DNA of 16,274 nt from an uncultured Acidobacteriota bacterium (GCA_964617125.1 CAZTVS010000108.1:1-16274), one strand, 5' to 3'; shown: positions 1,839-14,883, counted from the stretch's first letter. Notes: a model not told the origin generated them from the sequence alone. Made by a program: numbers and translations.

Positions 1839-3464
1839 TCAGTAGAGCTGTTCGGACTTGGGCACATACCATCTGATCAGGTTGTGGGATATTCCGGCGG
1901 GAGCCGGCTCAACACCCCGAACACGGGCACTTACCACCGGCAAGGCGTCGGGAACGTACAGGAAGGTATAGGGCTGCTCATCGGCAAGTATTTCCTGAAT
2001 GCGATAGTAGGCACGCTTGCGTTTTTTGATGTCAAAGGTACTCCGCCCCTCCACAAGCAACCGATCAACCTCGTCATTCTTGAAACCGATGAAATTCAGT
2101 TCGCCCGGCTTGGTCTTGCTGGAATGCCAGACGTCAAACATGTCAGGGTCGAGAGATGTGGTCCATCCAAGTAACACCACATCAAAATTGCCCTTGTCAA
2201 CGAACTCCTTCAGAAATGCGGCCCATTCCACGACACGGATCTTGACATCAACACCCACGTATCTGAGACGTTGCTGGATGATCTGCGCCGTCAGGAGACG
2301 CTGCTGGTTACCCTGGTTGGTCAGGATGGTGAAGGAAAAGGGTCTCCCCCCCTTAACCAGAATCCCCTCACCGTTTCTCTCCCTCCATCCGGCCCGGGCC
2401 AGCAACTGCATGGCGCGTCTTGGATCGTATGGAATGTCTTTGATTTTCGGGTTGAACGCCCAGCGGCCCGGGGGAATGGGCCCATAGGCCTTGCACCCCA
2501 TTCCGAACAGCACGCCGTGAATCAGTTCATCCTTGTTGATGGCGGCAGTGATCGCCTGACGGACTAATTTCTCTTTGAACAGCGGATGCCGGAGATTGTA
2601 CCCCATGTAGACATAGCTTGAAGATGAGTAGCGATATTTATTGAATCGCGCGGCAAACTGCCGGGAGATCGTCTGGCGCATGTACTGGACCGGGGTCAGG
2701 TTCATCAGATCGATCGAGCCGGCCTTGAGCTCCATGTACATGGTTGATAGATCAGGGATAATTCTGTAGACGTAGCGCGCTATGTAGGGGCGCCCCTCGA
2801 AATAATCGGGATTCGCCTCCAGCACGATCTTCTGCATGGGAACCCACTCCCTGAACCGGTAGGGGCCCGTCCCCACCGGTTTCCGGGCCAGAGGGCTCTT
2901 GGTAATGTCCTTCCCTTCCAGCAGGTGAGCCGGTAGAATACTCGTTCCCCAGGAGGCCAGGGCCGGCGCGAAGGGCCTGGCATAGGTCACGATGACGGTG
3001 TGGTCGTCGGGAGCGGACACTCCCTTGACCTGCTTGAAATCCTCGGAATAGGCGGTGGGAGTTCCGGGATCGATGACGACTCTGTAGGTATACAACACAT
3101 CGCGGGACGTAAACGGAGCGCCGTCGTGCCATTTCACCCCCCGGCGCAGTTTGAAGGTTATTTTGAGCCCGTCGGGGGAAACGGAAAAAGATTCAGCCAG
3201 ATCGCAGACCAGCTTCAGGTTCTTGTCGTATTTGACCAGACCGTTATAGATGAGTGACGACACCTCATGGGAGGATGCATCGGTGGCAAGAATGGGAATC
3301 AGGGTGGACGCCTCACCGATCGTACCTTCCACGATGGAATCGCCGTAAACCGGCTTTTCTCTCTTATCGACGGGACGGGAAACCGGCGAAGAGTTCCGGC
3401 TGCACGCGGCAACCAGCAGAAAGGCGACGAGCAGCAGAGGCATGAACCAGTAATGACGGTTCAT
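1839..3464 (-). CDS. Solute-binding lipoprotein of ABC transporter family 5 (OppA/DppA/NikA-like)
   Basis: The 541-aa ORF starts with a signal peptide and lipobox (LLVAAC). Its length and conserved blocks (KWHDGAPFTSRDV, NPDYFEGRP) are typical of cluster-C/family-5 periplasmic binding proteins. Its start overlaps the stop of the upstream TPR gene (ATGA). Confidence 0.85.
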   Translation of the reverse strand: MNRHYWFMPLLLVAFLLVAACSRNSSPVSRPVDKREKPVYGDSIVEGTIGEASTLIPILATDASSHEVSSLIYNGLVKYDKNLKLVCDLAESFSVSPDGLKITFKLRRGVKWHDGAPFTSRDVLYTYRVVIDPGTPTAYSEDFKQVKGVSAPDDHTVIVTYARPFAPALASWGTSILPAHLLEGKDITKSPLARKPVGTGPYRFREWVPMQKIVLEANPDYFEGRPYIARYVYRIIPDLSTMYMELKAGSIDLMNLTPVQYMRQTISRQFAARFNKYRYSSSSYVYMGYNLRHPLFKEKLVRQAITAAINKDELIHGVLFGMGCKAYGPIPPGRWAFNPKIKDIPYDPRRAMQLLARAGWRERNGEGILVKGGRPFSFTILTNQGNQQRLLTAQIIQQRLRYVGVDVKIRVVEWAAFLKEFVDKGNFDVVLLGWTTSLDPDMFDVWHSSKTKPGELNFIGFKNDEVDRLLVEGRSTFDIKKRKRAYYRIQEILADEQPYTFLYVPDALPVVSARVRGVEPAPAGISHNLIRWYVPKSEQLY

Positions 3465-5155
3465 CGCTCACCCTGCTCCCCTTTGAGTCTGCGGACCTTG
3501 TCGGCCAGTTCCTTGCGTTCTGGTTCCAGTTCCAGCGCTTTTTTATAGACCCTGAGCGCTTTCTTGTTCTCACGCCGGGCAACATAGGCGTCTCCGAGAT
3601 GTTCGAGGATGGTGGAATCATCCTCCGCGAGCCGGGTGGCCTCCTCGAGGTTACTGACTGCCTCGTCAAACCGTTTCATCTTGAAGTACACCCATCCCAG
3701 GCTGTCCAGAATGAAACCGTCATCGGGTCGGATTTCAACGGCCAGTTTGAGGTATTTCAGCGCTTCGTCCAGGTTGATTCCCATCTCCGCATACGAATAC
3801 CCGAGATAGTTCAGCGCCTGGGCATCCCTTGGATTGATGCTCAGCACCTTTTTCATCCGTTCTATGGATGCCTGCCTCTTCCCGAGCGTATCATACAGCA
3901 CGCCGATACGAAAATGCAGGCGCGGTTCATCCGCAAAACGCTTCTCTGAGGCGAGAAGCAGTTCCAGGGCGGTCCCCGCCTTGCCGGCAGCTTCATAAAC
4001 CGTGGAGAGATTGAGGTAAAGCTCAATCTGATCGGGATTTGCGGCAATGGCATTTTTCAGAACATCGATGGCCTCGTCGTTCCTGCCCTTTTCCGAAAGA
4101 ACAAAGGCAATGTGGCCGATCGCATCGACATATACTGGGGAATCGGCGGGAATCTTTCTGAATTCGGTGTAAGCCCGGTCCAGTTCGCCCTTCTCCTCAT
4201 ATGCAACCCCAAGATAGAGCCTGATTGGATGGGCAGTCGGGTCCTTCTCCAGCAGATTGGTAAAGACGGAGATCGCCTCATCGTACTGTTCCAGTTCAAG
4301 ATGAATCAGTCCGATCTTCCGCATGGTTTCCACGCCGTTCAGACCTGATTCCGCGGACTGGTTGAGGTATTCCAGGGCTTCTTCCAGCCTGCGCTGCTGT
4401 ATGAGCAGCTGGATGAGACGCTGCTGAACCGCAATTCGGCTCTCATCTTCCTCAAGAAGACGCTGGTAGATTTCTATGGCCCTGTCATACTCACCAAGCG
4501 CCTCATGGGATACCGCCATGTCGATGGAAGCCTGGGTAAACTCCGGCCTGAGTTCCACTGTTTTCCTGTAGTATCCAACGGCATCACGGAAAAGCTTCAT
4601 CTGGCTGTAAGTCCGGCCGAGATAGTAATATCCCAGGACGGATTCGGGGTTAAGTTTCACCAGATCCTTGAGCGTATTGACCGCATCCTCGTACTCGAAC
4701 AGGCGGGTCAGTGAAACGGATAGATGCAGATATGCATCCTCCTTGCTGGGGTCAAGTTTTATCGCTGTACGGAGATACCCCACAGCCTCGCTGTCCTTGC
4801 CGGACGAGGCCATGATGACACCTGCCATGACGTACGGCTCGCGGTAGGCGGGATCGAGCTTGATCGCCCGGTTGACGTACTCCAGACCCTCCTGAACCTG
4901 CCCGATTTTGATCTTGTTCTCAGCCATGGCCGTATAGAGAAAAGCCGAGGACGGGTCCAGGTCAATGGCTTCCCTCAGATTGCTCAGGGCACCGACGAAG
5001 TCGCCTTCAATACTGGAAAGACGCGCACGGGAGTACAGGTAGAGCGCACGGGAACGCGCATCATGAATCTGGGGATAGGTGGAGGCATGGTCACCGACGG
5101 TGGCGCATGATGCAAGCGCCGCGGCGCACAGGAGCATGCTCAAAATAAATTTCAT
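3461..5155 (-). CDS. Tetratricopeptide-repeat (TPR) lipoprotein
   Basis: The 564-aa ORF has an N-terminal signal peptide with lipobox (ALASC). Roughly 12 or more 34-residue TPR units are visible, with recurring A..Y....G.Y.EA...Y..AL.L.P motifs. It is translationally coupled to the downstream SBP gene. Confidence 0.85.
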   Translation of the reverse strand: MKFILSMLLCAAALASCATVGDHASTYPQIHDARSRALYLYSRARLSSIEGDFVGALSNLREAIDLDPSSAFLYTAMAENKIKIGQVQEGLEYVNRAIKLDPAYREPYVMAGVIMASSGKDSEAVGYLRTAIKLDPSKEDAYLHLSVSLTRLFEYEDAVNTLKDLVKLNPESVLGYYYLGRTYSQMKLFRDAVGYYRKTVELRPEFTQASIDMAVSHEALGEYDRAIEIYQRLLEEDESRIAVQQRLIQLLIQQRRLEEALEYLNQSAESGLNGVETMRKIGLIHLELEQYDEAISVFTNLLEKDPTAHPIRLYLGVAYEEKGELDRAYTEFRKIPADSPVYVDAIGHIAFVLSEKGRNDEAIDVLKNAIAANPDQIELYLNLSTVYEAAGKAGTALELLLASEKRFADEPRLHFRIGVLYDTLGKRQASIERMKKVLSINPRDAQALNYLGYSYAEMGINLDEALKYLKLAVEIRPDDGFILDSLGWVYFKMKRFDEAVSNLEEATRLAEDDSTILEHLGDAYVARRENKKALRVYKKALELEPERKELADKVRRLKGEQGER

Positions 5156-5244
5156 TGTAAAATAGGTCCGTTTCTTTAAAAATTGTAAAAAAAACTAGCA
5201 TGAATCCATACATGCGTCAAATGAATATCAATGACTCCAACACC

Positions 5245-5273
5245 TTGCTACGGAGGCGGTTTGATGTTAATCT
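5245..5273 (+). promoter_or_regulatory. Candidate sigma70-type promoter for the 5295-11236 operon
   Basis: TTGCTA (5245-5250), a 17-nt spacer, then TAATCT (5268-5273) with an upstream TG, about 20 nt before the ATG at 5295. It lies in an AT-rich divergent intergenic region. This is motif-level evidence only. Confidence 0.3.
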
Positions 5274-5294
5274 TTAGAGCAATAATGGGGCTCC

Positions 5295-6857
5295 ATGATG
5301 ATACGAAGCGCTCTAAAATCACTGCTGAAACCGGAAGCATATCCTGAGCCTACCACCAGGGTCGACCTGGTGCAAACTCATGTCTCATGGATATTTCTCA
5401 CCGACACCCATGCCTACAAGATCAAGAAACCGGTTGATTTCGGTTTTCTCAATTTTTCAAGTATAGATCGACGTAGATTCTATTGCAACGAAGAGGTAAA
5501 GTACAATAGGCGTCTTTGCCCCGACATGTACGTGGGAGTCGTGGAACTGCGCAAGACTCCCACGGGCGCCGGTTTTCTGGGAACCGGCCAGATAATAGAC
5601 TATGCGGTCAAAATGAAACGGCTTCCGGCGGAGGGAATGCTTGACCGTCTCATCGGAAACAACGCCGTGTCGGCAGCGGAGCTTCGGGCAGTTGCCCGGA
5701 TGATCGCCGATTTTCACCAGACAGCTCCGACATCGCCCGCCATCTCAGAGTACGGGGGCGTTGACCGCATCCTCCGCATTTGGACTGAAAACTTAGAACT
5801 GACTGTTCCCTTTGAGAGCAGCACCCTTCCGGCGACAGAACGGGAATTGATCAGGGAATGGGTATTCTCGTTCACGGAACGTAATGCCGGCCTGTTTGAA
5901 AGGAGAATCCGGAACGGTTTCATCCGTGAATGCGATGGCGATATCCACCTGGAGAACATCTGCCTGGTCAACGGCGCAATCTACATATTTGATTGCATAG
6001 AGTTCAGCGACCGCTTCCGCTGCTGCGATACCGCCTCGGATCTCGCATTCCTGCTCATGGACCTGGATTTTCACGGTCGCCGTGACCTGACCACGGAAGC
6101 CATGGCAGCCTATCTTGACTCTTCGGGCGATGAGGAGATGTTCGCCCTGCTGGATTTCTATAAGATCTACCGAGCCTTTGTGCGTGGAAAAGTTGAAAGC
6201 CTGAAGGCGATGGACATCGGCATCGACCAGCAGGCCCGCGCTGCGGCCACCCAGAAAGCCGTCAGGTATTTCAGGCTGGCGCGTGGTTATATCGAGCGGA
6301 CCAGGCTTCCGACCACCCTTTTCATAACATGCGGCCTGACGGGCTCCGGGAAAAGCACTCTTGCCGACCAACTCTCCTTCGAACTGGGAATCCCCGCTTT
6401 CAATTCCGATATCATCCGCAAACAGATGGCGGGGATCTCCCCTTTAACGCCGGCCCCTGCCGCTTTCGGTGAGGGAATTTACTCCCCGCAGGCCAATGAA
6501 CAGACCTACGACGAACTTCTGAGACTGGCTGAGCAGGAGATTTCGGCGAGCCGCTCGGTCATAATCGACGCCTGCTTCATCCGCAAAGCCGACCGCGCCA
6601 GGTTCGCGGCAGCGGCGCAGCGCTACGGAGCGCGTTTCGTAATCATGCATGTCTCGTGCAGTGAGGCGATCAACCGGCGCAGACTCAGCGCCCGCTCTGC
6701 GTCGGGCCGATCCGTATCGGACGGCAGGGCGGAAATATTCGGCGTTCAACGCCAGATGTTCGAACCACCGGAAACGGAAGAAGGCCGGATCATACCGGTC
6801 CGTACCGTAACGGCGCCATCAAGGCTTACCAGCATGGTATACGAAAGGCTGGCCTGA
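5295..6857 (+). CDS. Bifunctional kinase: N-terminal aminoglycoside-phosphotransferase-like (APH/protein-kinase-like fold) domain fused to a C-terminal P-loop kinase (AAA_33-like) domain
   Basis: The 520-aa ORF has an APH-type catalytic loop (CDGDIHLENI) and downstream IFDCIEFSDRF...DLAFLLMDLD in the N-terminal half. The C-terminal half has a Walker A motif (GLTGSGKST). The stop at 6857 lies 1 nt before the next ATG. Confidence 0.75.
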   Translation: MMIRSALKSLLKPEAYPEPTTRVDLVQTHVSWIFLTDTHAYKIKKPVDFGFLNFSSIDRRRFYCNEEVKYNRRLCPDMYVGVVELRKTPTGAGFLGTGQIIDYAVKMKRLPAEGMLDRLIGNNAVSAAELRAVARMIADFHQTAPTSPAISEYGGVDRILRIWTENLELTVPFESSTLPATERELIREWVFSFTERNAGLFERRIRNGFIRECDGDIHLENICLVNGAIYIFDCIEFSDRFRCCDTASDLAFLLMDLDFHGRRDLTTEAMAAYLDSSGDEEMFALLDFYKIYRAFVRGKVESLKAMDIGIDQQARAAATQKAVRYFRLARGYIERTRLPTTLFITCGLTGSGKSTLADQLSFELGIPAFNSDIIRKQMAGISPLTPAPAAFGEGIYSPQANEQTYDELLRLAEQEISASRSVIIDACFIRKADRARFAAAAQRYGARFVIMHVSCSEAINRRRLSARSASGRSVSDGRAEIFGVQRQMFEPPETEEGRIIPVRTVTAPSRLTSMVYERLA

Positions 6858-6858
6858 T

Positions 6859-7116
6859 ATGCTGAAGCGACTGCGCCTGATGCTGCTGCATCGTCTGCAA
6901 TTGCGGGAATCATGGATTATCTTCTTCATACTGGGTCTTATCCTGATCAATTTTCCCTTTCTCGGTATCTTCAATAAATCCGAAACGATCCTGGGCATTC
7001 CGCTCCTTTTCCTGTACCTTTTCGTCGGCTGGGGAACATCCATATCCGTGATCTACCTTTTTACCCTGGCTTCCGGCAGCACGGACGCAGCTTCCACGGA
7101 GAAACATCAGCCGTGA
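6859..7116 (+). CDS. Small two-helix membrane protein, DUF4212-like putative small subunit of a sodium:solute symporter
   Basis: The 85-aa ORF has two hydrophobic helices (IIFFILGLILINFPFLGIF and LLFLYLFVGWGTSISVIYLF). It lies immediately upstream of the SSS-domain gene and is translationally coupled to it through a GTGA overlap. This is the usual arrangement for small subunits of SSS transporters. Confidence 0.55.
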   Translation: MLKRLRLMLLHRLQLRESWIIFFILGLILINFPFLGIFNKSETILGIPLLFLYLFVGWGTSISVIYLFTLASGSTDAASTEKHQP

Positions 7117-10100
7117 CCAACGGCCTTATCCAGACCTCGCTGATTACCATGCTCTATACCCTGCTGATCTTCCTGATCGCCTGGTATGCCCATTACCGCA
7201 AAGAAAACGGCCGGAGTATGGTCGCCAATCCGTACATCTATACCCTCTCCATCGCGGTCTACTGCACGGCCTGGACGTTCTACGGCAGTGTCGGCAAGGC
7301 GGCGACAACCGGAATCGATTATCTCCCGATCTATCTGGGTCCTTCCCTCACGGCATTCGCATGGATATTCCTGCTGCGACGCATGATAAGGATCAGCAAA
7401 GAGAACAACGTAACATCCATTGCCGACTTCATCAGCCTGCGCTACGGCAAGTCTCCCTGGCTGGGAGCGCTCGTAACCGTTCTGGCGATTCTGGGCATCA
7501 TGCCCTACATCGCCCTTCAGATCAAAGCGGTGTCCACCAGCTTCCATCTCTTGAGCGGAAACGTTTTTCCGCCTGATTCGATCCCGTTTTCACGCGCCGC
7601 GTACGGCGCCTCGCTCCCTAGCGGCCTCCTCCTTTCCCTGATCCTGTCGCTGTTCGCCGCCATCTTCGGAGCCCGCAGGCTGGTTTCTTCCGAACGTCAC
7701 GAGGGACTCATCGCGGCGATCGCGCTGGAATCCGTGGTGAAACTGGTGTGCCTGCTGGGTGTGGGTATTTTTGTCACGTACTGCCTTAACGACGGATTTG
7801 TTGACATTTTCATGAAGTTTCGACAGTTTAACCCCGTTGACTTCAACCGACTGATGACCATCGGCGCGAGCCGGTTCCCCGGTGACACGGTTCCCCCATT
7901 CACCATGCTGTTCATGTCCATGGGGGCAATAATGCTCTACCCCCGCCAGTTCCACGTCATGGTGATCGAAAACTCCACAGAACGCCATATAGAAAGGGCC
8001 ATGTGGCTCTTTCCGCTCTATCTCTTCCTGATCAACCTTTTCATCATTCCCATTGCCCTGAGCGGCATAATGATCACCGGCACTGCCGATAATGCCGATT
8101 TCTTCGTCCTGAACATTCCGCTCCTGACCGGGCATCGCACCATCGCGACATTGGCGTATCTGGGCGGACTCGCCGCGTCGGCAGGCATGGTCGTGGTTGA
8201 ATCCATCACCATATCCACCATGCTTCTCAACTACATCTTCATGCCGGTCATAGTGCGGCTGAAGCCGCGCAGCTGGTTCCCCCATCTGCTGATCAACCTC
8301 AAACGGTTCGGCATCTTTCTGGTCATCTTCCTGGGATACCTCTACTACCTCTTTGCCGGCAACGCCTTCACCCTCTTCAAACTGGGAATGTTTTCCTTCT
8401 CGGCCATAATCCAGTTCATGCCGGCCGTGCTGGGGGGGGTCTACTGGAAACGCGCCAATCGTACGGGAGCGATCATCGGCATTCTCTCCGGCCTGATCAC
8501 ATGGCTGTACACACTCTTTCTGCCGTCTCTGGGAAACGTCCGCGGGATTCGGTTGGACGCCCTCAACAACGGCCCCTTCAATATATCCCTTCTCAAACCC
8601 ACCGCTCTCTTCGGCCTTACCGGCATGGACCCGTGGAGCCACTGCCTGTTCTGGAGCATGCTTTTCAACATCGGCGGTTATATCGCGTTTTCGATTCTGC
8701 TGACTCAGGATGAGCAGGAGAGGAACCATGTCAGAAAGTTCATCGGCACTTTCGAGACGGAACGTCGCAAGCGCCTCCATGGAGAGACGAGTCGGCTTTC
8801 CAAACCCGTTACCATAACCCAGTTCACCTCCCTGCTGGCAAAATTTATCGGGGACCAGGAAGCAGAGCATGCCATCAACGGCTATATCGGAAACCGGAGC
8901 ATCGACAAGGGCGGCCACATCTCCGAATTCGAGCTTCCGAACCTGAAGCGCTTCACGGAAAAAACCCTTGCCGGATCGGTTGGAGCGGCTGCCGCCGGCG
9001 CCATCGTGGACAGTTATCTGTCGGACATGGGCTCACGCATGGAACTGGTCTACGACATCTTCAGCAACGTGAGGAGTTCCCTGGACCAGAGCCGTGAGGC
9101 CCTGTTTGTCCGCCTCAAGGCCTCGGAGATCATCAATCGCACCCTGGATCTGCGCATCATCATGGATGACCTTCTCGAACTCCTCATGAGGGAATTCAAG
9201 CTCGATCTGGCAATGATCTTCCTCCGGGACAATCAGGGCAATCTCACACTGGCCAGCGCCAGAGACAGAGAAGATAACGCCGCGCCGGCGGGGCAGTGGC
9301 TGAATGAATGCAGGGATGTGTGCGAGATGGTGGCAAACAGAGGCAAATCGTACGTCATCAACGACACATCAACCGATATCCAGGCGGAAGCTTTCCGCTT
9401 TGACTTCCTGGCCAGGGCCGTGTCATACGCCTACATCCCCATTCTGCGGGAGGGAGAGAAATCTCCGGGGATTCTTGCCGTTTTCTCAAATGCAATCCCG
9501 GGCCTCTTTACTGAAGAATTCATCGGACTTCTGGAAAGCCTTGCCGGCCAGCTTGCGCAGGCCATCGCCATCACGCGCGAAATTGAGGCCAAGGAACGGG
9601 AGCGGACCCAGAAAGAGCATGCCCTCATGCAGAACGCCCGTATCAGGCGGGACATGGAGATAGCCCAGCAGATACAGCTCTCCCTTCTTCCGGCAGCACC
9701 GCCACAACTTTTCGGGGTGGAGCTTGAGGGACGCTGCATCTCCGCGGCCCATGTTGGAGGGGACTACTACGATTTTTTCCGGCGTGACGACAACACCGTC
9801 GATATTTTGATTGCGGATGTCTCGGGACACAGTGTGGGAGCGGCGCTAATCATGGCTGAGGCGCGGACCCTGCTCAAACCCCAGATCAACTCGTCCCACA
9901 GCGCTTGCGCCATCCTCAAGCTGCTGAACAACCAGCTTTACGACGACCTCACCCGGGCGGAACTGTTCATCACCATGTTCTACGCCCAATACAACTCCGC
10001 CACCGGACGTCTCTCCTACGCGAATGCAGGCCACAACCGCCCGCTCGTCTGTCGCGAGGGAGAGGGGGACTGCATCCAGCTGGATGCCGAAGGGCTCATA

Positions 10101-10370
10101 ATCGGCGTCAGGCCGACCGTTGTTTTTGAAGAGCGAAGCATAGAACTCGTGCGGGGTGATGTGGTATTATTCTATACCGACGGCCTGATCGAAGCCACAA
10201 ATCCCGGGGGGGAACAGTTCGGAATTCAGAGAATCTGTTCAAGGTTGAGGGAATTTCGCGATCTCACAGCAAAGGAGATCATAGACTCATTGTACTCATC
10301 AGTGTCGGAGTATACCGGTCTTGGCGCCTATCAGGACGACATCTCCCTGGTGATACTGAAGATTCTCTGA
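7113..10370 (+). CDS. Membrane sensor phosphatase: sodium:solute-symporter (SSS) domain, GAF domain and PP2C/SpoIIE-type serine phosphatase (RsbU-like)
   Basis: The 1085-aa ORF starts with a GTG at 7113. Residues 1-520 are polytopic membrane and SSS-like (YGSVGKAA..GIDYLPIYLG, multiple TM helices). Residues 660-830 form a GAF-like fold (LDLRIIMDDLLELL...LDLAMIFLRD). The C-terminus carries PP2C motifs (GGDYYDFF, ILIADVSGHSVGAAL, FYTDGLIEA, DDISLVIL). Confidence 0.85.
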   Translation: MTNGLIQTSLITMLYTLLIFLIAWYAHYRKENGRSMVANPYIYTLSIAVYCTAWTFYGSVGKAATTGIDYLPIYLGPSLTAFAWIFLLRRMIRISKENNVTSIADFISLRYGKSPWLGALVTVLAILGIMPYIALQIKAVSTSFHLLSGNVFPPDSIPFSRAAYGASLPSGLLLSLILSLFAAIFGARRLVSSERHEGLIAAIALESVVKLVCLLGVGIFVTYCLNDGFVDIFMKFRQFNPVDFNRLMTIGASRFPGDTVPPFTMLFMSMGAIMLYPRQFHVMVIENSTERHIERAMWLFPLYLFLINLFIIPIALSGIMITGTADNADFFVLNIPLLTGHRTIATLAYLGGLAASAGMVVVESITISTMLLNYIFMPVIVRLKPRSWFPHLLINLKRFGIFLVIFLGYLYYLFAGNAFTLFKLGMFSFSAIIQFMPAVLGGVYWKRANRTGAIIGILSGLITWLYTLFLPSLGNVRGIRLDALNNGPFNISLLKPTALFGLTGMDPWSHCLFWSMLFNIGGYIAFSILLTQDEQERNHVRKFIGTFETERRKRLHGETSRLSKPVTITQFTSLLAKFIGDQEAEHAINGYIGNRSIDKGGHISEFELPNLKRFTEKTLAGSVGAAAAGAIVDSYLSDMGSRMELVYDIFSNVRSSLDQSREALFVRLKASEIINRTLDLRIIMDDLLELLMREFKLDLAMIFLRDNQGNLTLASARDREDNAAPAGQWLNECRDVCEMVANRGKSYVINDTSTDIQAEAFRFDFLARAVSYAYIPILREGEKSPGILAVFSNAIPGLFTEEFIGLLESLAGQLAQAIAITREIEAKERERTQKEHALMQNARIRRDMEIAQQIQLSLLPAAPPQLFGVELEGRCISAAHVGGDYYDFFRRDDNTVDILIADVSGHSVGAALIMAEARTLLKPQINSSHSACAILKLLNNQLYDDLTRAELFITMFYAQYNSATGRLSYANAGHNRPLVCREGEGDCIQLDAEGLIIGVRPTVVFEERSIELVRGDVVLFYTDGLIEATNPGGEQFGIQRICSRLREFRDLTAKEIIDSLYSSVSEYTGLGAYQDDISLVILKIL

Positions 10371-10411
10371 GCTTCTTTTATCCGTAGCAAATGATCGGAT
10401 CAACCATCTGT

Positions 10412-10420
10412 TGTTATAAT
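10412..10420 (+). promoter_or_regulatory. Candidate extended -10 element (TGtTATAAT), possible internal promoter for the STAS/kinase genes
   Basis: A perfect TATAAT at 10415-10420 is preceded by TGt (10412-10414). It sits 23 nt upstream of the ATG at 10443 and 40 nt downstream of the phosphatase stop. No good -35 is present, which is typical of extended -10 promoters. Confidence 0.35.
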
Positions 10421-10442
10421 GAACTGCCATAAAGGAGTGAAC

Positions 10443-10778
10443 ATGAACCTGAAGATTGAAGCGGTCGGCAGCCGCATGATTATCGCCGTACAGGAAGAGA
10501 GGCTTGACGCCCACAACTCCGACGAGTTGAAGACCGAAATGAACAGGCTTTTCTCCGAGGGGGCGAAGGATCTGATCCTAGACCTCAAGGATGTGCGTTT
10601 CATTGACAGTTCAGGGCTGGGAGTACTGGTTTCCGGATTCAAGAACGCCTCGACCCGCCAGGGTTCTCTCAAGCTCGCGGGACTGCAGACGCAGGTGAGA
10701 TCGATGTTTGAACTGACCCGGCTGCACCGCGTCTTTGACATCTTCCAGACAACTGACGAGGCGCTGGACAGTTATTAA
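10443..10778 (+). CDS. STAS-domain anti-sigma-factor antagonist (RsbV/SpoIIAA-like)
   Basis: The 111-aa protein starts at the ATG at 10443, which has a strong SD (AAAGGAG, 10431-10437). The track ORF start at 10419 lies inside the -10 box. It carries the conserved phosphorylatable serine motif (FIDSSGLGVLV) and has typical STAS length. Its stop overlaps the next start (TAATG). Confidence 0.85.
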   Translation: MNLKIEAVGSRMIIAVQEERLDAHNSDELKTEMNRLFSEGAKDLILDLKDVRFIDSSGLGVLVSGFKNASTRQGSLKLAGLQTQVRSMFELTRLHRVFDIFQTTDEALDSY

Positions 10779-11236
10779 TGAATAGTTTCAGTCTGAGCGG
10801 GCAATTCATGAAAAATGAAATCGAGATCAACATCAGAGTACCCAATCAGACGCGCTACCTGAGCCTTATCGGAAGGATCGGCGAATACATGGCGCGGGAA
10901 GCCTGCAGGCTGCCGGATGACAGGGAGTCCCTGGCATTCAACATGAACGTGGTGCTTACGGAGGCCATGACCAACGCCATAAAACATGCAAACGCGGCAG
11001 ACCCGAACAAGGAGGTCCAGATCTGCATCAGGATATCAAAGGACGAGCTTGATATCATGGTATACGACAGCGGCCAGGGATTCGATCTCAATGCGATTCC
11101 CTGGCCGAAGTTCGATTCCGACTGCCTGGATGAAGCCGGCCGAGGAATCTTCATCATCAGATCCCTGATGGACTCGGTGGTATACGAGAAGGCGGATGGC
11201 GGCAACGTACTGAGGATGAAGAAGGGCCTGAGGTAA
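10778..11236 (+). CDS. Anti-sigma regulatory factor / serine protein kinase (RsbW/SpoIIAB-like, GHKL HATPase_c)
   Basis: The 152-aa ORF has an N-box (EAMTNAIKHA), a G1 box (DSGQGFD) and a G2 box (GRGIFIIRSLMD). Its size and its position after a STAS gene are typical of partner-switching kinases. Confidence 0.8.
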   Translation: MNSFSLSGQFMKNEIEINIRVPNQTRYLSLIGRIGEYMAREACRLPDDRESLAFNMNVVLTEAMTNAIKHANAADPNKEVQICIRISKDELDIMVYDSGQGFDLNAIPWPKFDSDCLDEAGRGIFIIRSLMDSVVYEKADGGNVLRMKKGLR

Positions 11237-11252
11237 GCCGACGACGACCGGG

Positions 11253-12278
11253 CTATGGCTCCACCGGCCCGTACTTCTCCTCTGCGGCCCTTACGATCTG
11301 CCTGACCATTGAGGCGGACAGAGCCCTGGTCATTTCACTCATGGCGCCCATGGTTGCCTTGGTGAATTTCACGGCCGGCGCGGTGCGCATGAACGCTACA
11401 TACTCACGCAACTCGTTATCGGTAAAATCCCTGAAGGTATAGGTAAGACCGATCCGTACCTGATTGCGCAGCTGCGCATCCATCTCACCCCTGTGGCGTC
11501 TGATCTGTTTGAGCATCTCTCCCCGGGCCCGCCTCTTTTCCGCGCTCCGTGCGGGAATCGCACTCATTGCCCCGAAAATCGCATCACCCATTATCTGTCG
11601 CGCCATCTGCGTACTCCTTGAGGCATCGTCCAGTTCGCGGATCAGGGTCCGTCTCCGGGGAGGCGGCGGGTTCCCCTCCATCTCGTTCAGTATCCGCTGC
11701 GCCGCCTCGGGCGACATGACGTCAACAGCGGTTTCCGCGTCGCGGACCTTGATCCCGAGGGGGCTCTTCATCCACGCCAGAATCGCCTCCAGGGTCCCGT
11801 TGTCCAGATGTGAACGGTAATAGGCGCGGATTCTGCGCTTGGCCTTCTGCGGATCGAACCCGGCCAGCGCCTGGGAAAAGACGTCGCCCAGTTCCCTGTT
11901 GTCTCCGATCGATGACATGGCGCCTGCCTGGAACTGCAGGAGAAACTTGTCGATCTGCTGGTCGAATTTCGACCCGGCTAGAATCTGTTCCACGAGGTCG
12001 CTGGAGGCGGCTCCGGCGGCACTGACATCTTTTGCATCGAGTATCGCGGTATCGGCGAACTTAGCTATCCTGTTGAACTTCTGCGTCTTCTCCAGCAACA
12101 CATCATCTTCAGGATACTCGAACAGGGTCTGTGATCTGCTGAGATAGACCCTGTCCCCCTCCATCCAGACCGAGTTGCCCGTCTCCCGTGAACCGTCCTT
12201 CAGATAAACGGTGGCGCCAAATGCCGCGCCAGCCATGCAGAGGGTTACAAGAACCGCCATGAGGAATCTAAGACCCAT
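11253..12278 (-). CDS. Secreted protein with two DUF2059-like domains
   Basis: The start is taken at the ATG at 12278, which has a strong SD (AAGGAG) 7 nt upstream. This gives a signal peptide (MGLRFLMAVLVTLCMAGAAFGA). Two copies of the DUF2059-type motif are present (AILAWMKSPLGIKV and YVAFMRTAPAVKF). An in-frame ATG at 12326 lacks an SD. Confidence 0.6.
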   Translation of the reverse strand: MGLRFLMAVLVTLCMAGAAFGATVYLKDGSRETGNSVWMEGDRVYLSRSQTLFEYPEDDVLLEKTQKFNRIAKFADTAILDAKDVSAAGAASSDLVEQILAGSKFDQQIDKFLLQFQAGAMSSIGDNRELGDVFSQALAGFDPQKAKRRIRAYYRSHLDNGTLEAILAWMKSPLGIKVRDAETAVDVMSPEAAQRILNEMEGNPPPPRRRTLIRELDDASRSTQMARQIMGDAIFGAMSAIPARSAEKRRARGEMLKQIRRHRGEMDAQLRNQVRIGLTYTFRDFTDNELREYVAFMRTAPAVKFTKATMGAMSEMTRALSASMVRQIVRAAEEKYGPVEP

Positions 12279-12360: not shown

Positions 12361-14883
12361 TTACGATTTTGAGGCCGAATCCAATGACTGCGAATCATTC
12401 TTTTTCAAAAGAGCGGGGAGATCGACACCCGGCAGCAGCCTGGTCAACGTTCCCATCAGTCCGTCCGCGGCGCTGGCGCCACCCGTTACCAGTACATCCG
12501 GCACGATCTTGATCCGGCCGCTTTCGATGGCCGCGGACAGCAGCTCCACGATCCTGATCTGCCTGATCGCCTCTTCGCCGATCGCCTCCTGCTGCTTGTT
12601 GTAGGCCTGGGCGGTTGCCTCGCCGATGGCCGCGATCTTGGATGCCTCGCCATCGCCGATAGCCCTCAGCCTCTTCCCCTCGCCCGTCCCTTCCAGCGCC
12701 TTGGCTTCCGCCGTACCCTCCGCAAGAGTGATCATCTCGGTCTTCTTCTGGGTGGCCACTTTCACCGCGATCTCCGATGCCACCAGCGTGGGCTGCTGGT
12801 CGGCAGTGGCGCGCATCTTCTCCATCTCGGTACGCTCGGCCTGCGACCTCTGCTCCATCCGGTACATCTCCTGCTGCTGCTCGGCGATGATGCGCTTGGT
12901 CTGGGTCTGCATGAGATCCTCCGGGAGCTTGATCTGGCAGATCAGTACCGACACGCACTCCACGTGGTAGCGCTCCAGATCGGCCCGGGCGCGGCTCTCG
13001 GCCTTGGCCTGCTCCTCGGAACGGCTCTGCAGGAAGTTCATGGCGGAGGCCGTGGAGGCCTGGTTCCTGAAGGAGGAGTCGATCATGGGATGGATCACGT
13101 GCTGGATGAGGTTGTCGATGGAACCGACCTTGGCGACCATGTAGGGCGCCTGATCGGGGCGGACCCGGATAACCACCTTGACCGCCACCTGGATCGGGAA
13201 GCCATCCTTGGAGATGACGGAAAGCTGATCGAAACGGGTGTCATCCTGATCATCCCAGTCGATGGTGATGTTGGTGGTGTCGATGATATAGACCATGAAG
13301 GCCCGGCGGTTGAGGTAATAGCGCCCCGGTCCGGCCACCTCCTCCTGGATGCCACGGTACCCCTTGGGAACGACGTACTTCTCCTTCCCCTCTTCCACGG
13401 AAGCCCCGAGTTGAGTCGAGCCGAGCCGTTTCTTCATCTCCTCCGTCGGATCATCTCCCACGTTGGAAACTATGACTCCGACCTGGCCGCGTTCGATAAC
13501 GGCCACGTTGTCCACTTCGACGCTGAACATGAAGTGGTTGATGTAGTAGGTCCCGGGTCTCAGCACGTCGAGCTGCGGGCCGCGCTGTCCCATGTTGGCA
13601 AGGAACGATGAACCGTTCTGGTAATCGTTGTGGCCGCTGACCGGCGAGGCCACGTACTCGCGCTCGGGAAGCGGAATGCCGTCCAGAGCGGTGACCAGGC
13701 CGACCTTGTTGGCTTCGACAACAATGGCGGGCGCGATCTGGATCTGAAACAGGTTGAGGTTGATGCGGTACGTGCCGGGAAGGAGCACATCGATCTGCGG
13801 CCCCTTCTGGCCGCCGTTCTTCAGGAATGCCTCGCCATTCTCGTAGTTCGAGTGTCCGCCCACGCTCTGGGCCAGGAGCCGGCCCATGGGGATGGGAGCA
13901 CCGTCCTGGGCGGTGACCATCCCCACCTCCCCCTTGGCGATCACCACCGCCCCGGCGTTAGTAACCTTGAACAGGTTGGGATGGATGCGGTAGACGCCGG
14001 GCGGCAGGATCTCGGTCTGGGGGCCCTTCTGGCCGCCGTTCCTGATAAAGGCCTCGCCGTCCTGAAAGGCGTTATGGCCGGAAACGACGGTGGCAAATAT
14101 GCGGCCGGCCGGAATTGCCGCGCCGTCGGCGGACTCGACCAGTCCGATCTCGTTTTCCCCGATCCTGGTGGCGGTGCTCTTGGTAACCTTGAACAGGTAG
14201 GGATTGATGCGGTAGTTGCCCGGCGGGATGATCTCGATCTGGGGCCCCTTCTGGCCGCCGTTTCTGATGAATGCCTCGCCGTTCTGGAAGGATGAGTGGC
14301 CTTCCACGGCCCGGGCGAAAATCTTCCCCTCGGGAATTGCCACCCCATCCACCGACTCCACAATTCCGATCTCGAAATCCTTGATCTCGGTCACCCTGCC
14401 CTTGGTGAGCTTGAAGAGGTACGGGTTGATGCGGTATTTTCCGGGAGGAAGCACTTCTATCTGGGGCCCCTTCTGGCCGCCGTTACCGATGAATGCCTCG
14501 CCGTCCTGAAAGGCATTGTGTCCGGCCACGACCTCGGCAAAGATCCTCCCCGGCGGAATCGGCGAGCCGTCCACCGATTCGATCATCCCGATCTCGTTTT
14601 CCAGGATTTCGGTAAAATAGCTCTTGGTGGCCTGGTAGATGAAAGGGATCAGGAAGTGCAGGCCGGGTCCCAGGGTCCGCGCCTGGATGCCGACCTCGTC
14701 ACCCATGGCCACGACCCGCCCTTGGGGCATCTTTTTGCCGAACCATCTCCGCTCGATCAGCGCTATTTCCCCACCGCCCACAATCACGATGGAGTTCCAG
14801 AGCAGAAAGCAGAAGATGGCAAAGGCCAGGATATAGTAGTAGTGGTGGCCGAGCCAGGAGAGCAGGGTAAAGGGGTCGTACAT
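12361..14883 (-). CDS. Flotillin/SPFH (band-7, YqiK/FloT-like) membrane protein with an N-terminal expansion of tandem 74-aa repeats
   Basis: The 840-aa ORF has an SD (GGGAGGA) 6 nt upstream of its ATG and an N-terminal TM helix. The C-terminal third is a flotillin-type coiled coil with Ala/Glu-rich EA repeats (AEQQQEMYRMEQRSQAERTEMEKMRA...AEGTAEAKALEGTGEGKRLRAIG). The core is SPFH-like. Five exact 74-aa repeats occupy residues 97-466. Confidence 0.85.
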   Translation of the reverse strand: MYDPFTLLSWLGHHYYYILAFAIFCFLLWNSIVIVGGGEIALIERRWFGKKMPQGRVVAMGDEVGIQARTLGPGLHFLIPFIYQATKSYFTEILENEIGMIESVDGSPIPPGRIFAEVVAGHNAFQDGEAFIGNGGQKGPQIEVLPPGKYRINPYLFKLTKGRVTEIKDFEIGIVESVDGVAIPEGKIFARAVEGHSSFQNGEAFIRNGGQKGPQIEIIPPGNYRINPYLFKVTKSTATRIGENEIGLVESADGAAIPAGRIFATVVSGHNAFQDGEAFIRNGGQKGPQTEILPPGVYRIHPNLFKVTNAGAVVIAKGEVGMVTAQDGAPIPMGRLLAQSVGGHSNYENGEAFLKNGGQKGPQIDVLLPGTYRINLNLFQIQIAPAIVVEANKVGLVTALDGIPLPEREYVASPVSGHNDYQNGSSFLANMGQRGPQLDVLRPGTYYINHFMFSVEVDNVAVIERGQVGVIVSNVGDDPTEEMKKRLGSTQLGASVEEGKEKYVVPKGYRGIQEEVAGPGRYYLNRRAFMVYIIDTTNITIDWDDQDDTRFDQLSVISKDGFPIQVAVKVVIRVRPDQAPYMVAKVGSIDNLIQHVIHPMIDSSFRNQASTASAMNFLQSRSEEQAKAESRARADLERYHVECVSVLICQIKLPEDLMQTQTKRIIAEQQQEMYRMEQRSQAERTEMEKMRATADQQPTLVASEIAVKVATQKKTEMITLAEGTAEAKALEGTGEGKRLRAIGDGEASKIAAIGEATAQAYNKQQEAIGEEAIRQIRIVELLSAAIESGRIKIVPDVLVTGGASAADGLMGTLTRLLPGVDLPALLKKNDSQSLDSASKS
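13486..14595 (-). repeat. Intragenic tandem repeat, 5 in-frame copies of 222 bp (74 aa), inside the flotillin gene
   Basis: The protein repeats R1-R5 each have the form EIGxVESxDGxxIPxGRIFAxxVxGHNAFQDGEAFIRNGGQKGPQIEILPPGxYRINPYLFKxT. All copies are exactly 74 aa with no indels. DNA blocks such as ggccccttctggccgccgtt recur at about 13800, 14024, 14239 and 14463. Partial copies flank the array on both sides. Confidence 0.85.

Follow-up and report, generated by a model that had tools for sequence, protein, structure and literature searches.

The window analysed here is a 16,274-nucleotide (nt) stretch of DNA from an uncultured Acidobacteriota bacterium (GCA_964617125.1, CAZTVS010000108.1:1-16274), taken at its full length. 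At its centre lies a gene for a sensor phosphatase with a transporter-like membrane part. It belongs to a cluster made up, in this order, of genes for a 520-residue predicted kinase, an 85-residue open reading frame (ORF), the sensor phosphatase, a STAS protein and an RsbW-like kinase (Table 1), an order retained in 54-59 of about 59 genome loci with upstream sequence. The sensor phosphatase ORF, whose ends coincide exactly with the interval delimited in a first-pass annotation of this DNA, opens with a GTG codon. This start is supported because the orthologues keep the 4-nt overlap with the stop codon of the small ORF that is also seen here; it is found in 55 of 58 loci, with ATG (30), GTG (24) or TTG (1) as the initiation codon. 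The product consists of an SLC5-type membrane domain with 13 transmembrane (TM) helices, a STAC domain, a GAF domain, a long helix and a PP2C phosphatase domain with intact catalytic motifs, and its gene stands in a conserved cluster.

Table 1. Genes of the cluster and segments of the sensor phosphatase, with coordinates counted from the first nucleotide of the window
Feature	Residues	Nucleotides	Strand	Basis or remark
Predicted kinase, 520 residues, first gene of the cluster		5295-6857	+	AAA_33 E 2e-28; APH E 0.005 (N-terminal half)
Small membrane protein, 85 residues, two-helix hairpin		6859-7116	+	Translation and hydropathy
SLC5-STAC-GAF-PP2C sensor phosphatase, whole gene	1-1085	7113-10370	+	1085 residues, GTG start
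SLC5/SSS-fold membrane domain, CbrA-type sensor subfamily	1-530	7113-8702	+	13 TM helices
STAC four-helix bundle, two hairpins	~566-640	8808-9032	+	
GAF domain	678-819	9144-9569	+	Pfam GAF_2 E 5e-14
Single long alpha-helix from GAF to phosphatase	801-858	9513-9686	+	AlphaFold2 model, DSSP
PP2C/PPM phosphatase domain, SpoIIE/RsbU type	869-1084	9717-10364	+	Pfam, motifs, Foldseek
STAS anti-sigma-factor antagonist, RsbV/SpoIIAA-like, presumed substrate		10419-10778	+	Pfam STAS E 3e-21
RsbW/SpoIIAB-like serine kinase/anti-sigma factor		10778-11236	+	Start overlaps the STAS stop codon

A model of the full-length protein was obtained with AlphaFold2 from a 72-sequence alignment (mean predicted local distance difference test score, pLDDT, 83.8). 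Foldseek searches of the PDB with this model returned two classes of matches only, SLC5 proteins for the membrane part and PP2C phosphatases for the C-terminal part. TM2 is broken at residues 51-52 and TM7 at residue 276. The best matches of the membrane part all belong to the SLC5, or sodium:solute symporter (SSS), superfamily, namely NIS, SGLT1/2, SiaT, SMCT1, CHT1, DUR3 and vSGLT, with E values of 7e-11 to 1e-7 and target TM-scores of 0.60-0.75.

Sequence searches point to a particular branch of this superfamily. Against all PDB sequences, residues 1-586 gave a single strong match, to chain 10ed_A (a 606-residue 'histidine kinase'; E 6e-71, aligned over residues 4-484), which a profile of ten diverse relatives lifted to E 2.5e-107. 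We identify 10ed as the cryo-electron microscopy structure of the SLC5-STAC part of Pseudomonas putida CbrA because the residue numbers in the alignment (Y51, S53, W55, A56, F71, Y75, K196, F248, F406 and S582) agree with those published (PMC13022988, now PMC13488458). When the family profile was run against all PDB sequences, it found the CbrA chain only and no canonical SSS chain at E<=1. The Pfam model SSF (PF00474) does not match the protein, even with the N-terminal 586 residues searched at E<=10, but it does match 9 of 44 sensor-family members (best E 7e-11); one relative, P0124, scores 27.5 bits for a cut-off of 22.8. The link to the SSS superfamily is thus real but remote. As for the NCBIfam models of canonical transporters, the best match is MctP (E 3e-9, 36 bits for a cut-off of 625), and the VC_2705-type symporter model matches at E 5e-7. 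We place the membrane domain in the divergent sensor branch of CbrA and CrbS, not with working symporters such as PutP or ActP.

The first-pass annotation had taken the N-terminal region for a complete SSS core. The SLC5 fold, with its 13 TM helices over about 530 residues, bears this out, but an ordinary sodium symporter it is not, in view of the missing SSF match and the placement in a divergent sensor branch. Likening the domain to the input of CbrA/CrbS sensors was well founded, as the 10ed_A and Foldseek matches make clear. On the strength of the same matches, we rejected a generic multi-TM sensor domain of the MASE or 7TMR kind, which had been named as the contrary possibility.

The alignment with CbrA also brings the residues of its pocket into register. 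Y51, W55, Y75 and F406 of CbrA correspond to Y50, W54, Y74 and F429 here, F71 corresponds to Y70 (F in most orthologues), and S53, A56 and F248 correspond to T52, T55 and S269. All eight positions are invariant or nearly so in the 59 orthologues that we used to measure conservation. The last three replacements mean that histidine as a ligand is not implied here, and the two non-conservative ones (A56 to T55 and F248 to S269) argue against it. In CbrA, the side chain of K196 fills the canonical Na2 site, and the proton gradient powers transport (PMC13022988); PutP's Na2 residues are not retained in CbrA (PMC7918813). K196 pairs with K210 (codon 7740-7742) in a similar motif context, 'ESVIKL' here for 'ESVVKL' in CbrA. 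K210 does not vary among the orthologues and keeps at least 90% conservation in relatives of every output type; W54, T55 and F429 also reach at least 90% in the wider sensor family. Because the lysine that fills the Na2 site of CbrA is invariant here, a canonical Na+ site, and with it coupling to Na+, appears unlikely from the alignment, a reading made through CbrA alone, as the profile search gave no residue alignment with PutP, vSGLT or SiaT. The retained pocket and coupling lysine would be compatible with a domain that binds a solute or even transports it.

Between TM13 and the GAF domain, the AlphaFold2 model contains four helices (residues 568-579, 581-592, 608-623 and 625-639), which were reproduced in a separate model of residues 531-680. 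Moderate evidence indicates that they form a STAC domain located as in CbrA, an element absent from the first-pass annotation. The fold corresponds to that of Af1502. The junction of helices 1 and 2 reads 'FIGDQEA' here and 'FLGPxxA' in relatives, and both fit the LGPx(x)A motif carried by STAC domains (PMC4834066). At the tip of helices 3 and 4, residues E616, L619, G621, G624 and A628 are invariant and mark the most conserved stretch of the domain; it aligns with the 'SGLMGPSVAQ' turn of CbrA, which inserts into the base of the transporter (PMC13022988/PMC13488458). A Foldseek search with the separate model of residues 531-680 gave no match, and comparison of the region as a single sequence with the PDB gave chance-level matches to GGA1 only. 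The profile of the region also matches FliG weakly (8z4d and 8umx; E 0.04-0.4) over the 'E..L.G..G.A.A' stretch, which may reflect chance or a distant resemblance between small helical domains.

Of five segments compared for mean conservation, the GAF domain has the lowest value (0.48) and the others lie between 0.64 and 0.72, the highest being that of the linker segment (residues 826-890). The GAF domain is joined to the phosphatase by a helix of 58 residues, which is single in the DSSP assignment of the model. By analogy with known phosphatases, this helix is presumed to be a coiled-coil signalling linker in a dimer. For RsbU, such a linker before the PPM domain has been demonstrated; for phosphatases with GAF, PAS or receiver inputs it is a prediction, and the coiled-coil linker model takes in RsbU, RsbP, RsbZ and GAF-PPM proteins (PMC12143880).

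The Pfam SpoIIE model matches residues 892-1084 almost from end to end (E 4e-48, model positions 1-191 of 192). The PP2C motifs GGDYYD (882-887), DVSGHS (902-907), TDG (1022-1024) and DDIS (1075-1078) are invariant in the orthologues, and so are the aspartates D884/D887, D902, D1023 and D1075/D1076, which, from general knowledge of the family, we take to be those of the metal site. In Foldseek, the domain matches RssB of Pseudomonas aeruginosa (3eq2/3f79), SpoIIE (5ucg), Rv1364c (3ke6), SiaA (6k4e) and RsbX (3w40). Neither HisKA nor HATPase_c is found by Pfam in the sensor protein, which has GAF and SpoIIE domains instead, and the window holds no response regulator gene. A PP2C domain wired to the membrane through a GAF domain, as first proposed from the DNA sequence, is therefore confirmed by the Pfam matches and the invariant motifs; the loss of metal-binding aspartates, which had been raised as a possible objection, was checked for and the residues are present.

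The two genes immediately downstream provide the partner-switching context that the first-pass annotation had assumed. The STAS protein scores 84.8 bits with TIGR00377, for a cut-off of 53.45, and its predicted phosphorylatable serine lies in D63-S64-S65-G66, a DSSG motif that is invariant in 72 loci. The RsbW-like kinase matches Pfam HATPase_c_2 (E 2e-25) and, under the equivalog cut-off, the NCBIfam RsbW model (E 3e-18); in more than 70 loci, its N-box (E62/N66/H70) and its G-boxes (D97xGxG, G121xG) show no variation. Among PP2C-type loci, the STAS gene is present in 70 of 75 and the kinase gene in 72 of 75. We also retrieved 80 metagenome loci with the sensor-domain profile in order to compare neighbours: a STAS gene adjoins all seven PP2C-type genes with enough flanking DNA and an RsbW-like gene all five, while kinase-type genes have neither. 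Taken by itself, the combination of this architecture with a partner-switching context is very probably right.

The small ORF upstream has hydrophobic segments at about residues 17-40 and 43-70 and is 51-69% identical to its orthologues. A hidden Markov model of these small ORFs detected counterparts at the same position before histidine-kinase relatives (E 1e-8 to 1e-18). In all, homologues lie ahead of 59 of the 73 sensor-domain relatives with upstream DNA, whatever the output domain, and their joint alignment has the consensus RLxxLFLLGxLLFNYPxLxLF...GIPxLYxYLFxxW. CbrA too has a small, translationally coupled two-helix ORF upstream of its gene: this is CbrX, a hairpin of about 58 residues that binds the SLC5 domain at TM3/TM8 (PMC13022988/PMC13488458). 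CbrX is shorter than the 85-residue product and shows no detectable sequence similarity to it, and no CbrA orthologue above 39% identity was present among the fetched loci to serve as a bridge between the two. The 85-residue protein is a candidate accessory subunit by strong analogy with CbrX, and the occurrence of such ORFs across output types suggests a general accessory subunit comparable to it. DUF3311 (PF11755) gives no match to the ORF of the window; among 15 orthologues it matches six, at E>=0.003, and among 28 members of the wider family one at E<=0.01.

The sensor-type SLC5 family is large, with 1326 clusters at 50% identity (E<=1e-30), nearly all of long multidomain proteins. Five of the nearest 150 cluster representatives have PP2C outputs, and most of the 150 are kinases with CrbS-type (SLC5/STAC) input. 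In a Pfam sample of 44 members (43 representatives and the present protein), HATPase_c was found in 33, HisKA in 27, SpoIIE in three, GGDEF/EAL in two, an HD-GYP-type domain in two and SSF in nine. Kinase outputs thus account for about 75% of sensor-domain relatives and PP2C outputs for about 3-5%. One of the PP2C forms, P0151 of Streptomyces albogriseolus (1206 residues), has an SLC5 sensor 44% identical to ours followed by a GAF domain, a SpoIIE/PP2C domain and a C-terminal RsbW-like HATPase_c_2 domain; some sources annotate it as 'Na+/proline symporter/serine phosphatase RsbU/anti-sigma...'. This fusion gives an independent link between the sensor phosphatase and a kinase of the RsbW type. 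As the kinase is fused in P0151 but encoded here by a separate gene, itself placed after a separate STAS gene, the pairing of phosphatase and kinase has come about twice and each time differently.

The architecture has been recorded before. A 2021 SSS review (PMC7918813) lists, from a SMART census, actinobacterial SSS proteins that combine GAF, PP2C_SIG and HATPase_c domains, the NCBI label of the orthologue in Geobacter sp. SVR is 'sodium/solute symporter serine/threonine phosphatase', JGI annotations also name the arrangement, and the fusion exists in Streptomyces as well. A protein identical to that of the window is already deposited in public sequence collections. Orthologues with 64-81% identity and 1072-1085 residues fill at least 120 database clusters, and a scan with one genome per species yielded 67 orthologous loci, nearly all labelled Geobacterales/Desulfuromonadales. 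The carriers include metagenome-assembled genomes (MAGs), Oryzomonas japonica and Pelotalea chapellei and, among the database clusters, Pelobacter propionicus and Geobacter sp. SVR. Because the orthologues are so widespread and of nearly equal length, the gene is real and conserved, and it is under selection. Two of the orthologous loci (L052 and L056) carry the MAG labels Dongiaceae and Pedobacter, although their synteny is unchanged and they are 62-65% identical to the Geobacterales genes; these labels likely result from binning contamination rather than from lateral transfer.

The first gene of the cluster stops 1 nt ahead of the small ORF. Its 520-residue product combines a weakly APH-like half, of protein-kinase fold, with an AAA_33 P-loop kinase half, and homologues are annotated as 'aminoglycoside phosphotransferase family enzyme/predicted kinase'. 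Of 59 orthologous loci, 54 have the gene in synteny, as do four of five more distant PP2C-type loci, and it never occurs beside kinase-type relatives; its product may belong to the same pathway as the sensor phosphatase. At the other end of the cluster, the next gene in the window (beyond 11237-11252) is a convergent DUF2059 gene. Elsewhere, this place is taken in many genomes by a convergent cluster of [NiFe]-hydrogenase and maturation-protease genes, and in others by a rubrerythrin-like or ABC-F gene. A scan of positions 5000-11500 for promoters and terminators gave one promoter-like site, where 3.8 were expected, and no convincing intergenic terminator.

Farther out, two divergent genes upstream of the cluster (1839-3464 and 3461-5155, minus strand, with a 4-nt overlap) encode an SBP_bac_5 solute-binding protein and a 564-residue TPR protein, a pair that is syntenic in about 30 orthologous loci. 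On the other side, at 12361-14883 (minus strand), lies a gene for an 840-residue protein with a Band 7/SPFH domain at residues 506-681 only, the remainder having no family match; it is not syntenic in related loci.

Among the closest characterized systems, CbrA of Pseudomonas, an SLC5-STAC-PAS-histidine kinase, resembles the present protein in its input. The two proteins share a homologous 13-TM SLC5 domain (33% identity), the lysine of the Na2 site, most pocket residues (Y, W, Y and F) and a STAC domain after TM13. They differ in their outputs, PAS-HisKA-HATPase with a response regulator in CbrA as opposed to GAF-PP2C with a STAS protein and a kinase here. CbrA is itself an outlier of the family, with 34-39% identity to all relatives tested. 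CrbS/MxtR and RpuS, which control acetate/pyruvate use (PMC9100948), belong to the same SLC5-STAC input family, a likeness drawn on grounds other than direct sequence comparison; unlike our protein, they work as histidine kinases, hybrid or classical, together with LuxR-type regulators. On the output side, RsbU/RsbP/RsbZ, SpoIIE, SiaA and RssB resemble the present system by the fold and motifs of a SpoIIE-type PP2C domain, a helical linker between sensor and phosphatase, and STAS/RsbW-type neighbours, and RsbZ also by its GAF-PP2C arrangement. However, the inputs of these phosphatases are RsbT-binding, PAS, receiver or HAMP modules rather than a 13-TM transporter-like domain with STAC, and the operon described here differs from those systems in having no sigma factor gene. 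Finally, the MctP permeases recall the present arrangement in that the gene of an SSS protein is paired with that of a small two-helix DUF3311 protein (PMC9100948), but the low MctP score of the membrane domain and the marginal DUF3311 similarity of the small ORF set them apart.

We propose that the protein is a transceptor-type membrane sensor phosphatase that feeds a partner-switching module, a proposal that, over its whole chain of inference, we hold to be reasonably probable. As with CbrX and CbrA, the hairpin protein would pack on the SLC5 domain. The central pocket, which lies between TM2 and TM7, both broken helices, would bind a small solute, and K210 would take the place of the sodium ion at Na2, so that a transport cycle, if any, would be linked to protons and not to Na+. 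Docked beneath the SLC5 core, the STAC bundle might read its occupancy or conformational cycling and relay a signal, by way of the helical connector and the GAF domain, to the 58-residue helix. This helix would form, in a dimer, a coiled coil that sets the switch helices of the PP2C domain, hence its metal binding and activity. The active phosphatase would then strip from Ser64 or Ser65 of the STAS protein the phosphate placed there by the RsbW-like kinase, and the dephosphorylated STAS protein would capture the kinase and free the target that it holds, presumably encoded outside the cluster. We infer both the direction of signal flow and the dimerisation. As to whether the SLC5 pocket controls the phosphatase, we see the chances as even. 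As ligand, acetate, pyruvate or some other monocarboxylate is a reasonable guess and no more, prompted by the MctP model being the best canonical match and by the role of the relatives CrbS and RpuS in acetate/pyruvate use.

Several observations weigh against this proposal. The profile of the STAC region is colinear with CbrA 516-591, but with a weak E value of 0.38. The AlphaFold2 predictions are of monomers, so the dimer and the docking of STAC lie outside the models. Two profiles of the small ORFs found no match among PDB sequences, the CbrX complex included. The pocket residues are almost identical across relatives with all kinds of output, and this family-wide conservation may reflect the mechanics of the domain rather than a specific ligand. 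Neither a sigma factor gene nor any other conserved gene was found 3' of the RsbW-like kinase gene, in the window or in the other genomes, and literature searches found no study of any SLC5-PP2C protein or of the Geobacter cluster. Finally, the SLC5 domain of CbrA is dispensable for signalling: CbrA deprived of it still signals at high expression, and perception is thought to be cytoplasmic (PMC7918813, PMC9100948).

If CbrA signals without its SLC5 domain, the GAF domain could be the real input here. It might sense a metabolite or nucleotide, with the SLC5-STAC part serving mainly as an anchor, a dimerisation scaffold or a modulator; the same has been argued for CbrA, whose candidate sensor is the PAS domain. 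GAF-PP2C phosphatases free of membrane domains, such as RsbZ, are indeed common (PMC12143880). Nevertheless, the GAF domain is the least conserved segment of the protein, in contrast to the invariant SLC5 pocket, K210 and STAC tip, and a 530-residue transporter fold accompanied by a conserved hairpin subunit would make for a costly anchor. We regard a true GAF sensor as the chief alternative to the transceptor proposal, possible but rather unlikely, bearing in mind that inputs through the GAF and SLC5 domains are not mutually exclusive.

Another possibility concerns the target of the module. The 520-residue APH-like/AAA_33 kinase, or its substrate, might be that target, in a sigma-independent switch like SiaABCD or HsbR/HsbA. 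The lack of a sigma factor gene in the cluster fits such a switch, and so does the company that the gene keeps with PP2C-type sensors but not with kinase-type ones. However, co-occurrence at a locus is by itself weak evidence, the gene is missing from one PP2C-type locus (L081) and nothing ties this protein family to STAS or RsbW proteins, which makes the idea improbable. Least credible of all is a protein that is primarily a working transporter, whose GAF-PP2C part regulates transport or reports flux with information flowing from the cytoplasm to the membrane: although the SLC5 domain of CbrA transports histidine on its own (PMC7918813) and STAC was first proposed as a regulator of solute transport (PMC4834066), that transport is insufficient for growth (PMC13022988/PMC13488458), the strict linkage with STAS and kinase genes argues for phosphatase signalling as the output, and the orthologous loci have no conserved nearby catabolic genes for a transported substrate.

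Returning to the transceptor proposal, one may venture a broader and doubtful scenario. The SLC5-STAC domain and its hairpin protein might form an ancient cassette that is independent of the output, be it a kinase, PP2C, GGDEF/EAL or HD-GYP domain. The PP2C form of the Geobacterales might then turn either the flux of a small carbon source at the membrane or its availability, with acetate or some other monocarboxylate as a possible source, into a sigma-independent switch whose effector would be the APH-like/AAA_33 kinase.

Since the architecture is already on record, the value of the present analysis is incremental. SLC5/STAC transceptors are understood through a few histidine kinases only, and how the core communicates with the output has remained open even after the 2026 structure of CbrA. 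A PP2C variant with a simple and separable read-out, the dephosphorylation of one small STAS protein, would provide an independent system in which to ask whether the pocket controls the output. It would also bear on the proposed rule that sensor modules are exchangeable among kinases, cyclases and PPM phosphatases by way of a coiled-coil linker. Since a small hairpin protein occurs alongside the sensor domain irrespective of its output, a subunit of the CbrX type seems to belong to the module in general. As for the Geobacter relatives, the cluster marks a nutrient-linked regulatory pathway that has so far gone unstudied.

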